Positions 1,997 to 62,608 of a stretch of DNA of 64,000 bases are shown here, in pieces (the first letter of the stretch is position 1; every line of letters begins with the position of its first letter). A model generated the notes under the pieces. It was not told the DNA's origin. It saw only the letters and a list, made by a program, of their open reading frames with translations, and did no database searches. The translations under genes and the position numbers were made by a program. Source of the stretch: Candidatus Spyradenecus sp. (GTDB lineage: Bacteria > Verrucomicrobiota > Verrucomicrobiia > Opitutales > UBA953); the NCBI GenBank assembly GCA_045535075.1, contig JAZSKX010000005.1:32001-96000 (forward strand), read 5' to 3'.

Positions 1997-2028
1997 GTTC
2001 CCGTGAGTTTTTTCACGGGAACATTTTT
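1997..2028 (+). terminator. Intrinsic terminator; stem is an inverted pair of the GTTCCCG/CGGGAAC motif
   Basis: GTTCCCGTGA (1997-2006) / TCACGGGAAC (2013-2022), then ATTTTT, just after the GH95 stop. Confidence 0.8.
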
Positions 2029-2079
2029 ATAGGATTCGGCGTTGCTCCCGTGCTTCCGTTCTCTTAAAACATTGCAAAA

Positions 2080-2742
2080 ATGAGTCTGCATAAAAAAATT
2101 CTTTCCCCGTCCATTCTTGCCGCCGACCACGCGGCACTCGCCGAAGGCTTGAAAATTGTCGTCGAAAACAATCTCGAGTGGATTCACCTCGATATTATGG
2201 ACGGCAATTTTGTGCCGAATATTTCGTTCGGACCGCAAGTCGTCAAAGATTTACGCAAGCGCAACACGTCGCTTTTTTTCGACACGCACCTCATGCTCGC
2301 GCGTCCGGATAAGTACATTGAAAAATTCATCGATGCCGGCTCTCAGCTCGTAACAGTTCACGTTGAGCCGGAATACGATGTCGCGGGAACACTAAAACGC
2401 ATTCGCGAACTCGGAAGCCAATCCGGTATTTCGCTCAACCCGGATACTCCGGTAGAGCGCATCTTCCCGTATCTGGAAGCGGTCGATCTCGTACTCGTGA
2501 TGTCGGTTTTTCCGGGATTCGGCGGGCAATCCTTCATCGATAGCGTGCTTCCTAAAATTGAAGCCCTCGCACGGGAACGCGATGCCCGCGGATTATGCTT
2601 CCGCATTGAAGTCGACGGCGGTGTTGATTCGCGTACCGCTCCGCTTTGCCTTGAGGCGGGAGCAGACACGCTTGTCGCGGGAACGGCATTTTTCAAGGCA
2701 CCCGACAAGCCGGCATTTGTCCGTCTCTGCCAGGGCGAATAG
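2080..2742 (+). CDS. rpe: Ribulose-phosphate 3-epimerase
   Basis: SPSIL, HLDIMDGNFVPN, DTHLM, MSVFPGFGGQ, VDGG, VAGTA motifs. Confidence 0.96.
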   Translation: MSLHKKILSPSILAADHAALAEGLKIVVENNLEWIHLDIMDGNFVPNISFGPQVVKDLRKRNTSLFFDTHLMLARPDKYIEKFIDAGSQLVTVHVEPEYDVAGTLKRIRELGSQSGISLNPDTPVERIFPYLEAVDLVLVMSVFPGFGGQSFIDSVLPKIEALARERDARGLCFRIEVDGGVDSRTAPLCLEAGADTLVAGTAFFKAPDKPAFVRLCQGE

Positions 2743-2751
2743 CACGCAACA

Positions 2752-59474: not shown

Positions 59475-62400
59475 ATGAAAACGCTTAATATTTTTTCTTT
59501 GATCTCGGCTGCAACGGCATTTTCTTTCGTTCCCGCGTTTGCTTCGGGTAAAACCGCGTCGGAAGATTTGGGCAATGTGATGTTTGTCGGCGACTCGATT
59601 ACGCACGGAGTCAATGCGGGCTCCTACCGTTGGGAATTGCACAAGATTTTTGCAGACAACGGGGTTTTGTATGAGGGCTTGGGTTATTTGTCGGGGAATT
59701 ATTCGAACGGAGTCAGCGCGGGAACGTTTTACGGCGGGATTTCTTTCAGCAATGAGCACAGTTCTCAGGCGAGTGCTCGCGCGTATGAGATTGCGGGAAG
59801 GAGTTCCGACGGGAAGCGTTTTGCGGGAACGAACATTTTGAACTGGCTCGGGCTTGAGACGGAAACGACGAATAATAAACCGTATTCGGGAAAAACTTAC
59901 GCCATTGATACGTTTTTTATGTTAATCGGGACGAATGATTTGCTTTCGGACAATACGGCGGCAGGAGTGACGGACGCGAAGGTAAATAATTTGCTCGGAG
60001 CGGATCTTGCCGGCGGCGACATGAAAACGATTCTCGACGCGATGTATAAAAGCAACAAAAACGCGAAAGTAACTTTGCTTTCGATTCCGGCTTGGACAAC
60101 GCATCCGAACAGCAATGCGGAAAAAGTCCACGCGGATGTTGCCGCGTATAACGTAAAACTCGGAACGTGGATTGATAATTATAACAAGGCGAACGGCACG
60201 GCGATTACGTATGTTGACATCAATGCGGGGCTTGTTGACGTAGCGTCGGAAACATCATTCTTCGGGAATGCGTCGATGTTTAACAATCCGGGAACGACAA
60301 GCGGCAAAGACGGACTTCATCCGAATAAACAAGGCGATTTGATTATTGCGGGCAATGTCGCCAAGGCGATGGGCTACGCGGGGCGCACGGCGGGGCAAAC
60401 GCGCAAGGCGGGAACGGCGTTTGCAAAGCATTTTGACAAATTTACGGACGTGCCCGCAGGATTGACGGCGACGAATGTTACGGCAACAGAGGACGGAAAA
60501 TTGAGTTTCTCTGCAAGCGGCGAATCGGTTTTAAAAGCGGCTTGGGACGCGGTTTCGACGCTCAAAAACGGCTTTACGGTGGATTTCGGCCTGGCGTTCG
60601 GCGACGGCAAGGCAAACGGCTGGGCGACCAAGGAACATATGAGCGTTACCGTCGGCGACGCAACGCGCTACGGAGTTTTAAATGTGAACGAAGCCTATAT
60701 TCAATGGGGCGAGACGGTTTTGTACTCGAAAGACATGTCGCTGAACGAAGATTTGTTGCGCGTCGCGTACGTTGTCGGAAATGCGTCGGAAGGCTTGGCG
60801 AGCGGATTTTATGTCTGGCTGAACGACATGCTAATCGGCGAAGGCTTGAGCGCAACGGAGAGCTCGGGCAACAGCGGTGTTACGTTTAAATATTCGGGGA
60901 GCGGGAACGTTGTTTTGGAAAGTCTTTCGCTGGATGCTACGGGCGCTTACGCACCGGAGACGACGGGTTTTACGAATGCGGAAGACGCATACTACATGAC
61001 GGATCCGAATTTTATTCCGAAGGCGGCACCTCAAGGTCAAATTACGTTTCCGGCGTACAGCACGTTTGCCAAGAGCGGCATGACGGCTTCGGGAAATTAT
61101 TCCGCGCGCGGGTCTGCGAATTTTGCCGGCGGCGCGAATACGACGTCGCGCCTTTATGTTTCGGGCGGGAACGCGGCTCAGCTTTATGCGAATTCGGGGA
61201 ATTACACGGGCAAACTTTTTGTCGAAGTTTCAGGCGGGAACGCGTCTTCGTGGTACGGGGCGCATACGAGCGGCGATTTCAACGGGAATGTAACGTTGCG
61301 CTTGAGCGGCGCAAACAGCGGCGGGAACACGGTATTCGGGGCAGTAAACGCGGGAACGGTTTTCGGCGATGTCTATTTGGATCTCAACGCGGAAAAAGCG
61401 GTTTTTAATTCGTTTACCCAAACCAATCCGGTCTCGCTTGCCGGGGCATACAATGCCGCCGTCACGGGAACTCTTCATGCTCAGCTCGGGGCGGGAACAT
61501 TTGAACACGATGTTATCGGCGGATTGCACACGGCGAGCGGCGGTCAATCTATCGGGAAAACGAGAATTTACGTCAACGGCGGCACGTACAAGGGGAATAT
61601 CTACGGCGGCGGTTTTGCCGGAAGAGTCGGTCAGGCTTCTGCGCCCCAAAACAACGCCGGAGCGGTAAGCAATGTAACGCTGACGGGCGGAACGATAAAC
61701 GGCGCGGTTTACGCCGGCGGGAACGGCGACACGATTAACGGCGACACGGCAGTTTCCGTCGTCGGCGGCACCATTCTCGGCGGGATTTACGGAGGCGGGG
61801 CTTCCGGAAAAATTAACGGGAACACGCACGTAACAATTGACGGAAACATCGCCCGACTTCGCTCTTCGGCAGAAGCTCAATGGATCAACATTTCGGGCGG
61901 CGGAACCGGCGGAACGATTAGCGGGAACTCGACCGTTACATTAAAAAATCTGAAGCCCGGCAACCTTATCAACGGAGCCGATCGCTACGCGGGAACGATT
62001 TCCGGCGGCACCAACGTCACGGGAACAAAAACGCTGACGCTTGAAAATGTCTCAATCAAAAGCTTGGACGCGACGCTTTCGGATTTTGACGTCGTAAACG
62101 TTACGCGCAATACCTCAACGGCGCTTAGCTCGCTCGGCGGCGCTTCGGTACTGAACATGGCTGCGGGAACGGCACTCAGTATCAGCCCCAAAGCGGATCT
62201 TAAAAACGTGAAGGAAATTTTGCTCGGCGCGAACGCTAAGTTGGAATTGGGGCTTGCGGCTTTGGGCAAGCACGACGAAGTCAAAATCATCGTTGCCGAC
62301 GAAACGACGGCGTTTTCGATTTTAGTTGTCGACTGGACAAGCGATACGGATTTGACGGGAATAAAATTCGAAGTCGGCGGCGTTGTTTACGACGCGGAAA

Positions 62401-62540
62401 CACAGATTCCGGACTTGCAGGCAGGAACGGTTTTTCTTTCGTACAATATTCCGGAGCCGTCCGTTTTCGGCATGCTCGCGGGCATCGGCGCATTGGCACT
62501 CGCCGGAACGCGTCGTCGCCGGGCACACGGGAAAATCTGA
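59475..62540 (+). CDS. Large SGNH/GDSL hydrolase with Gly-rich beta-solenoid repeats and PEP-CTERM
   Basis: GDSITHG, IGTND, DGLHPN; repeated (I/V)YGGG units; IPEPSVFGMLAGIGALALAGTRRRR. Confidence 0.88.
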   Translation: MKTLNIFSLISAATAFSFVPAFASGKTASEDLGNVMFVGDSITHGVNAGSYRWELHKIFADNGVLYEGLGYLSGNYSNGVSAGTFYGGISFSNEHSSQASARAYEIAGRSSDGKRFAGTNILNWLGLETETTNNKPYSGKTYAIDTFFMLIGTNDLLSDNTAAGVTDAKVNNLLGADLAGGDMKTILDAMYKSNKNAKVTLLSIPAWTTHPNSNAEKVHADVAAYNVKLGTWIDNYNKANGTAITYVDINAGLVDVASETSFFGNASMFNNPGTTSGKDGLHPNKQGDLIIAGNVAKAMGYAGRTAGQTRKAGTAFAKHFDKFTDVPAGLTATNVTATEDGKLSFSASGESVLKAAWDAVSTLKNGFTVDFGLAFGDGKANGWATKEHMSVTVGDATRYGVLNVNEAYIQWGETVLYSKDMSLNEDLLRVAYVVGNASEGLASGFYVWLNDMLIGEGLSATESSGNSGVTFKYSGSGNVVLESLSLDATGAYAPETTGFTNAEDAYYMTDPNFIPKAAPQGQITFPAYSTFAKSGMTASGNYSARGSANFAGGANTTSRLYVSGGNAAQLYANSGNYTGKLFVEVSGGNASSWYGAHTSGDFNGNVTLRLSGANSGGNTVFGAVNAGTVFGDVYLDLNAEKAVFNSFTQTNPVSLAGAYNAAVTGTLHAQLGAGTFEHDVIGGLHTASGGQSIGKTRIYVNGGTYKGNIYGGGFAGRVGQASAPQNNAGAVSNVTLTGGTINGAVYAGGNGDTINGDTAVSVVGGTILGGIYGGGASGKINGNTHVTIDGNIARLRSSAEAQWINISGGGTGGTISGNSTVTLKNLKPGNLINGADRYAGTISGGTNVTGTKTLTLENVSIKSLDATLSDFDVVNVTRNTSTALSSLGGASVLNMAAGTALSISPKADLKNVKEILLGANAKLELGLAALGKHDEVKIIVADETTAFSILVVDWTSDTDLTGIKFEVGGVVYDAETQIPDLQAGTVFLSYNIPEPSVFGMLAGIGALALAGTRRRRAHGKI

Positions 62541-62576
62541 GATTTTCACAAGTTTTTCTCCGCAAATTTTCCAAAC

Positions 62577-62608
62577 AAAAAAGCGTTCCCGCACGGGAAC
62601 GCTTTTTT
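62577..62608. terminator. Bidirectional terminator made almost wholly of the motif pair
   Basis: AAAAAAGCGTTCCCG-CA-CGGGAACGCTTTTTT. Confidence 0.88.

Follow-up and report, generated by a model that had tools for sequence, protein, structure and literature searches.

Words that are repeated throughout a chromosome and also build the stems of intrinsic (Rho-independent) terminators have been described so far in Neisseriaceae and Pasteurellaceae, namely the DNA uptake sequence (DUS) of the former and the uptake signal sequence (USS) of the latter, for which ComN is said to be the predicted receptor. In Neisseria, 54-57% of the terminators carry DUS, and the nearly fixed order of the two copies in a pair (226:5) is explained by the extended motif (Kingsford et al., PMC1852404, Table 3). 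DUS accumulate, furthermore, in the core genome, and the two families are called unique in needing uptake sequences (PMC3630211). We describe here a comparable word, CGGGAAC (GTTCCCG on the other strand), in a 64,000-nt stretch of DNA from Candidatus Spyradenecus sp. (the window, G000:C15:32001-96000) and in its source genome, G000, which is a 1.95-Mb assembly of 18 contigs with 99.45% completeness. The word is maintained at the DNA level and has colonised the stems of predicted terminators; the terminators co-opt the word and are not its cause. A 16S search of the assembly gave no match. Its polynucleotide phosphorylase (PNPase) shares 92% identity with the enzyme of a Candidatus Spyradosoma genome and 88% with the one encoded by an Opitutales genome obtained from deer rectum, which places the organism among the gut Opitutales as a Spyradosoma-like member.

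The word resembles the DUS of Neisseriaceae (GCCGTCTGAA and its dialects, with the receptor ComP) in its thousands of copies on both strands, its presence in about half of the terminators, its near-absolute pair order (226:5 there and 159:2 here) and its accumulation in the core genome. The two differ, however, in that the sequences are unrelated and the present word is only 7-9 nt long, is denser (6,516 copies in 1.95 Mb versus ~1,900) and belongs to a different phylum; neither a ComP-like pilin nor ComEA was found, and the genus and family yielded no dialects. With the USS of Pasteurellaceae (AAGTGCGGT), it shares a short core with graded flanks, a frame bias, enriched tripeptides and the loss of maintenance in some lineages, but it has no AT-rich downstream segments and occupies a larger share of the terminators (16-29% in Pasteurellaceae). 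Also, the loss of USS accompanies defective competence genes in Pasteurellaceae (PMC1626085, Table 1), whereas the competence genes stay intact in the decayed lineages examined here. Compared by eye with the forms given in PMC1852404 and PMC3630211, namely GCCGTCTGAA, AAGTGCGGT, ACAAGCGGT and AAGCGGT, the word showed no relationship. In all the genomic respects that were tested, the word behaves as DUS and USS do (PMC3630211, PMC1939737, PMC1626085, 10.1101/2025.10.24.684340, PMC2817400), but we do not class it as a member of either, because its sequence is unrelated, no matching receptor was found, and its role in uptake is putative.

The initial annotation of the window had noticed seven exact GTTCCCG...CGGGAAC stems after gene ends and four near-variants, and had proposed that these are intrinsic terminators with GTTCCCG almost always first and are not copies of one mobile element. 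All 11 hairpins are indeed present, and each folds as a single hairpin; the energies range from -18.7 to -31.2 kcal/mol and the z-scores from -4.5 to -8.6, a stability that none of 200 shuffles equalled. For the genome-wide statistics, 1,589 genes (87.6% coding) were called in G000 by a self-trained model, so that small or atypical genes may have been overlooked, and a motif-blind search for a hairpin followed by a U-tract was applied to 1,541 gene ends; a simpler terminator scan was too permissive (46 found versus 41.9 in shuffles). The search predicted 350 terminators, in which those between convergent genes enter once per gene. Exact GTTCCCG in the 5' arm together with exact CGGGAAC in the 3' arm was present in 159 (45%), while a single exact arm in the same order was seen in 29 and an arm with one mismatch in 17; another 5, of which 2 are exact, have the arms reversed, and the word is missing from 140. 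The dominance of the GTTCCCG-first arrangement is thus borne out across the genome, with 159 exact pairs against 2 in reverse and a single reverse case (42509-42538) in the window. CGGGAAC occurred in 162 of the 350 3' arms, compared with a mean of 0.34 over 2,688 GC-matched 7-mers and with 2 for the best unrelated 7-mer, and the proposal hence withstands this check.

Intergenic GTTCCCG-first pairs number 163 genome-wide; when the same copies were placed at random 200 times, the mean was 24.4 and no run exceeded 40. They occupy 98 of 1,053 tandem, 62 of 196 convergent and only 3 of 207 divergent gaps; pairs in the opposite order were found in 14 tandem, 2 convergent and 3 divergent gaps, with ~24 expected from random placement for either order. 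The median distance from stop codon to hairpin is 26 nt, and a T-tract accompanies 82 of the 98 tandem and 53 of the 62 convergent pairs. In tandem gaps read on the sense strand, furthermore, U·G (42 cases) outnumbers C·A (8 cases) at the first inner pair (p = 1e-6), as when pairing is selected on the transcribed strand; in convergent gaps, with both readings counted, the numbers are 21 and 16. A GC-rich hairpin followed by a U-tract soon after the stop codon, in tandem and convergent placement, indicates that these are predicted intrinsic terminators, and they would act as RNA because the asymmetry of U·G over C·A is not expected of DNA-level hairpins and because divergent gaps are avoided. 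The parallel that the initial annotation drew with the inverted pairs of DUS and USS matches the account of Kingsford et al. (PMC1852404).

Repetitive extragenic palindromic (REP) elements, which are spread by RAYT transposases, are likewise intergenic GC-rich hairpins after genes, and G000 carries two 150-aa Y1_Tnp genes, each with inverted flanks. That the present hairpins are such elements is, nonetheless, hardly credible and is refuted by the following tests. The inner sequences are distinct in 158 of the 163 pairs, with neither a conserved body nor an end tetranucleotide (GTAG was seen in 0 of 458 at the single outer position scored, where AAAA is commonest), and the word is mostly single and coding. 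The flanks of the two RAYT-like genes, moreover, are other hairpins that occur 6 and 2 times genome-wide and have no word in their arms, while one copy of the word lies in a loop. These genes, with their own REP-like inverted flanks, are located at G000:C10:1-1100 (L103) and C14:6500-7210 (L104); three direct repeats of 144 nt precede the one in C10, whose hairpin recurs at the end of C2.

The word is by no means confined to terminators. Its copies in G000 amount to one per 299 bp, 11-fold over an order-2 Markov model, whereas its single-mismatch variants reach only 0.4-2.5-fold, and the consensus of the copies is the non-palindromic Y-R-CGGGAAC-G-C. Genes contain 5,542 copies (85%) and 968 lie outside, in both orientations, and in all six reading frames the word is 3.6-13-fold above codon-resampled genes. 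Where the protein permits the word, its codons are nearly saturated: the Gly codon GGA is used in 1,763 of 1,810 word-permitting contexts (97%) but in 11,892 of 42,038 others (28%), and GTT-CCC is found in 1,441 of 1,707 Val-Pro-G contexts versus 56 of 835 other contexts. Even the proteins are skewed, with the tripeptides AGT and VPA enriched 4.9- and 5.0-fold but not their permutations; the tripeptides linked to USS, under another null, are about doubled (PMC2817400). The density rises from 1.1 copies/kb in genes of 36-43% GC to 3.5 in those of 52-59%, and the most conserved genes are poorer in the word (2.3/kb above 95% identity versus 3.2-3.9/kb in the classes of 60-95%). From the codon-context saturation, together with the conservation of sites in genes described below, we conclude that the word is maintained at the DNA level, as the initial annotation had claimed; the non-coding copies from which it argued are, however, weak evidence when they stand in terminators, because their pairing is selected as RNA.

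Gaps of more than 2.5 kb between copies are mostly low-GC islands and restriction-modification or phage-like genes, as labelled by reading the sequences, with rpoB as an exception. One such motif-poor, low-GC place (G000:C2:15779-21592; L112:2779-8592) has an MmeI-family restriction-modification gene directly followed by a gene for a 937-aa protein with a reverse-transcriptase domain and looks like a defence island. Because it is short, G-rich and not a palindrome, and because foreign DNA has little of it, the word might be taken for a polar site of a recombination or translocation enzyme, like Chi or the FtsK orienting polar sequences (KOPS). Chi and KOPS have a strong replichore polarity and a lower density. 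Here, only 51.9% of the copies are on the G-rich strand (2,530 versus 2,342 in seven contigs with uniform skew), and without replichore polarity we regard this explanation as very improbable.

How the word is distributed was examined in 19 genomes of the genus, namely G000 and 18 congeners, and in 22 other Opitutales genomes (41 overall). Counted as CGGGAACG, it occurs 5,159 times in G000 and 5,161-7,777 times in 14 of the 18 congeners, but 552-1,385 times in the remaining four (G001, G002, G013 and G014) and 8-493 times in the 22 outgroup genomes; the genus thus comprises 15 high-motif and four low-motif genomes. Inverted pairs number 15-355 per genome within the genus and 0-4 outside. In a tree of PNPase and PilT rooted with other genera, from which G006 was excluded for its split genes, G001, G002 and G013 are sister to G000 (support, 0.997) inside the high-motif clades, while G014 stands elsewhere at a poorly supported exact position; by parsimony on this tree, the maintenance of the word was lost twice in the genus. 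Indeed, seven high-motif relatives retain 52-71% of the sites of G000 versus 13-20% expected from overall identity by a crude identity^7 control, whereas 25-27% are kept in G001, G002 and G013 (20-30% expected) and 13% in G014 (13% expected). Of the copies surviving in G013, 75% are common to G000, as for remnants.

The decayed lineages separate the terminators from the word. In the comparison with G013, which covered 1.18 Mb or ~56% of its genome, 77 motif terminators of G000 had a readable ortholog, and 60 of these are still predicted terminators (both arms are exact in 26, one arm in 8 and neither in 26), while none was found at the other 17; among motif-free terminators of G000, 57 of 89 are still predicted. 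The mean stem energy is unchanged (-16.3 versus -16.6). After pnp and its upstream gene, most of the genus has preserved the stems, although the loops and flanks have been replaced, and in G001 and G014 the hairpin after pnp is retained but has drifted off the word. Since most terminators persist in the decayed lineages with equal stability, termination does not need the word, which has colonised the stems. These results also bear on the possibility that the word is primarily an RNA signal read by a termination or RNA-binding factor, with the coding copies as a side effect. While its presence in one order in both arms of nearly half of the predicted terminators would suit such a signal, only ~330 of the 6,516 copies are in intergenic pairs, the great majority being genic in both orientations, and the persistence of wordless terminators in G013 largely refutes it; we consider it highly unlikely. 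The terminator copies do erode more slowly in G013 (53 of 187 versus 174 of 369 hairpins, with the bulk density falling from 3.3 to 0.96/kb), but this lends no special support, because pairing alone predicts it.

Dialects of the word were found neither in the genus nor in the family. Two candidates from 20-kb samples, RCGGGTAM in G019 (507 genome-wide versus 415 in the control) and CACCCTC in G022, were rejected, each sample being a single frame of more than 5,700 codons. The open frames in question (L095, G019:C2:1-20000, and L091, G022:C1:5001-22300) exceed 6,600 and 5,700 codons, respectively, run past both ends and are likely to encode giant surface proteins. As a replacement word in G013, we considered AGATTAAAG, the top new 9-mer with 200 copies in 45 of 85 loci, but it is far rarer than the old word, and at the one place inspected it lies inside a low-complexity intergenic run. 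Runs of the CTTTAAT/CTCTAA type occur at many G013 loci (e.g., L195:140-200); AGATTAAAG, present 200 times in 1.18 Mb versus 46 times in the whole of G000, may be a spreading small mobile repeat.

The order of the pair would be explained by the flanks of the word. Among 5,503 coding copies, A is found at positions -2, -3 and -4 in only 7, 15 and 19%, respectively. The reverse order would set the A/T tract of the terminator at -2 to -4, precisely the positions at which A is avoided, while the GTTCCCG-first order places these positions in the loop; this inference agrees with the explanation for Neisseria in PMC1852404. A general polarity of stems contributes as well, since motif-free hairpins are also mostly CCCG-first (43 versus 7 in G000 and 12 versus 6 in the outgroup loci) and the family's other genera have CCCCG-first stems in their pnp terminators.

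What has driven the word into the chromosome? To sequence-biased DNA uptake followed by recombination, as for DUS and USS, we assign about an even chance on the genomic evidence. The features by which uptake sequences are known are present here: a short asymmetric word with >1,000 copies, equal on both strands and in genes and gaps; inverted pairs forming terminators with an order bias; and retention between species above background, with scarcity in foreign DNA. Under this explanation, the word would have come to fill genes nearly wherever the protein permits, on both strands and kept site by site, as the retention of alleles is biased by a protein that reads it on double-stranded DNA; the best candidate for this protein is a putative receptor for uptake within the type IV pilus/ComEC/DprA/ComM pathway. 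The same bias would rewrite both stem arms to the word, because terminators need pairing but no fixed sequence, while RNA selection keeps the stem and the U-tract, and GTTCCCG-first would win by the avoidance of A at -2 to -4 plus the C-rich-first tendency. Where the bias lapsed, the word would erode and the terminators stay, as the comparison with the decayed lineages shows. The uptake parallel of the initial annotation is genuine, yet it does not identify the mechanism: terminators could co-opt any word that is abundant and is read on both strands. Neither ComEA nor a ComP-like receptor was found.

The machinery of G000 includes two PilB-like ATPases, PilT-like and PilC-like proteins (the names PilB, PilT and PilC being our reading of T2SSE/T2SSF matches), PilM, a secretin, 7 pilin-like genes, ComEC, DprA and ComM. 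Several observations nonetheless weigh against uptake as the driver. ComEA was not found in the genus, where matches to HHH_3/TIGR00426 are frames of ~800 aa (that of G000 being Tex), and a six-frame scan for the helix-hairpin-helix pattern returned housekeeping proteins only. None of the 7 pilin-like proteins matches a Pfam ComP family at E<=0.01, and their heads are acidic (pI 4.1-5.8). ComEC is present in 41 of 41 and PilT in 37 of 41 genomes; since relatives without the word have both, they do not discriminate. The decayed genomes, furthermore, retain PilT, ComEC and DprA (19 of 19 genus genomes) as well as ComM (3 of 3 tested), and ten pilus/competence genes do not evolve faster in G013 (107 versus 93 changes, with 619 versus 568 for other genes), DprA alone showing 33 versus 19. 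In the high-motif G018, comEC (G018:C2:113816-115573) matches as two overlapping pieces, by a frameshift or an assembly error. To these are added the crudeness of the control for site retention and the fact that the word is shorter and denser than DUS and USS.

Much of this would suit, instead, an intracellular sequence-specific protein, either a nucleoid or segregation factor with selected sites or a repair/recombination factor converting near-matches, as proposed for HIP1 (highly iterated palindrome 1) of cyanobacteria; terminators would be co-opted likewise. All the DNA-level results fit such a reader equally, neither ComEA nor a basic pilin was found, decay happened with the uptake genes intact, and a lost cytoplasmic gene could lie in the 44% of G013 outside the comparison. 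HIP1 (GCGATCGC) indeed resembles the present word in its extreme abundance, mostly genic location and lineage-specific loss, and it is tied to two orphan methylases (PMC4390886). HIP1 is, however, a palindrome, whereas this word is asymmetric, and among the four methylase families searched none is common to the high-motif genomes: C5 was found in 10 of 19 genus genomes, the MmeI-type domain in 2 of 5, the D12 type in 3 of 5, and N6_N4 was not found in G000. The MmeI and C5 methylase genes of G000, moreover, sit in or beside motif-free gaps, and among the 726 genes with G013 orthologs no tested synteny-confirmed loss fits an intracellular reader. We hold this explanation to be possible, with a probability clearly below even.

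At syntenic places in the examined part of G013, 40 genes of G000 are missing or diverged. The one checked genus-wide, a 132-aa gene (G000:C1:100340-100738) that is cleanly deleted in G013, has 0 Pfam hits, by eye is presumably TfoX-like, and was found in 10 of 19 genus genomes; it was rejected as the sole driver, because it was not found in 4 of 4 low-motif genomes and likewise not in 5 of 14 high-motif ones. A second pilin operon was likewise discarded as a discriminator, for it is present in four low-motif and three high-motif genomes and does not separate the groups. This four-gene operon, like type II secretion pseudopilins (L172-L178: G013, G002, G001, G014, G018, G004 and G012), is present in 7 of the 19 genus genomes and missing at the syntenic place in G000, which points to a type II secretion system that was lost in a patchy way. 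The secretin operon may have another purpose, as is the case for the pili of Akkermansia. ComEC diverges fast in the genus (32-64% identity, with PNPase at 88-99%), and that of G000 (G000:C11:3775-5487; L120:1275-2987) has 570 aa and ends shortly past the Competence domain.

If uptake is the driver, CGGGAACG might represent a third, independently evolved system of self-DNA recognition, with a receptor unrelated to ComP and a pathway without ComEA, strong enough to rewrite nearly half of the terminators and to saturate synonymous sites, and switched off twice in the genus; we put forward this fuller proposal tentatively, at a little short of an even chance. The two switched-off lineages would then serve as natural knockouts in the search for the reader. 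With an unrelated word, a case in Verrucomicrobiota would be evidence that the whole pattern of saturated codons, skewed tripeptides and rewritten terminators can re-arise; should the driver be something other than uptake, it would be a route, not described before, by which a protein writes its site into a genome. The genus offers close sister lineages with and without maintenance, largely lacking in the classic cases, which makes the identity of the driver testable by comparison of gene content and sequence; terminators are passengers that outlast the word. New here are the two lineages in which the word has decayed, by which terminator function can be told apart from it, together with the controlled statistics on terminators, the asymmetry seen at the RNA level and the explanation of the order. 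In the literature searched, which mostly did not cover subscription journals, we found neither a description of the word as CGGGAACG, GCGGGAAC or GTTCCCGC with Verrucomicrobia nor an uptake sequence of Verrucomicrobia, and the papers naming Spyradosoma were, judged by title, gut surveys or name lists.

The features of the window are collected in Table 1. The dispersed single copies are the pool that supplies the stems.

Table 1. Word-bearing features of the window (coordinates are window positions)
Feature	Position	Strand	Remarks
Predicted terminator, exact GTTCCCG...CGGGAAC stem	1997..2022	+	Starts 12 bp past gene end at 1985; weaker T-tract
Predicted pnp terminator, exact stem, T-tract	6208..6241	-	Of 17 genus genomes that have sequence here, 13 hold the word in both arms; loops vary
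Predicted terminator after 85-aa gene (8652-8909; presumably ribosomal protein S15), exact stem	8605..8643	-	15 of 18 genus genomes retain both arms
Predicted bidirectional terminator, exact stem, convergent genes	10215..10255	.	Fold, sequence
Extra exact stem, minus-strand T-tract, upstream of tRNA-Pro (15151-15228, minus)	15297..15320	-	Absent from the initial annotation
Predicted bidirectional terminator after rubrerythrin, exact stem	19587..19624	.	Fold, sequence
Predicted terminator, exact stem, upstream of tRNA-Val (37450-37526)	37329..37359	+	Fold, sequence
Predicted ilvC terminator, near-variant stem TTCCCG...CGGGAA	39157..39194	+	Fold, sequence
Predicted terminator, rare opposite order CGGGAGC...GTTCCCG, one mismatch	42509..42538	+	Sole such case among the 11
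Predicted bidirectional terminator, near-variant stem CTCCCG...CGGGAG	52934..52969	.	Fold, sequence
Predicted terminator, convergent genes, one exact arm	58314..58341	.	Fold, sequence
Predicted bidirectional terminator, both arms exact and separated by 2 nt	62577..62608	.	Fold, sequence
246 dispersed single copies of CGGGAAC/GTTCCCG (119 + 127)	37..63368	.	Consensus Y-R-CGGGAAC-G-C; mostly genic

The hairpins at 10215, 19587 and 62577 lie between convergent genes and have A- and T-tracts on both sides. An Rfam search returned two tRNAs and nothing else; both tRNA genes of the window have a same-strand motif hairpin with a T-tract ~70-90 bp upstream (15297-15320 and 37329-37359), which would insulate them from read-through. 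Among assembled contigs from three RNA runs of one study, two X2 contigs stop at 6237 and 10209, and one X4 contig spans 10215-10255; the runs X3 and X4 contain less than 1/10 of the words. The loops of two hairpins also vary among strains, with small deletions at 6225-6226 and 10230-10239 in public-run contigs.

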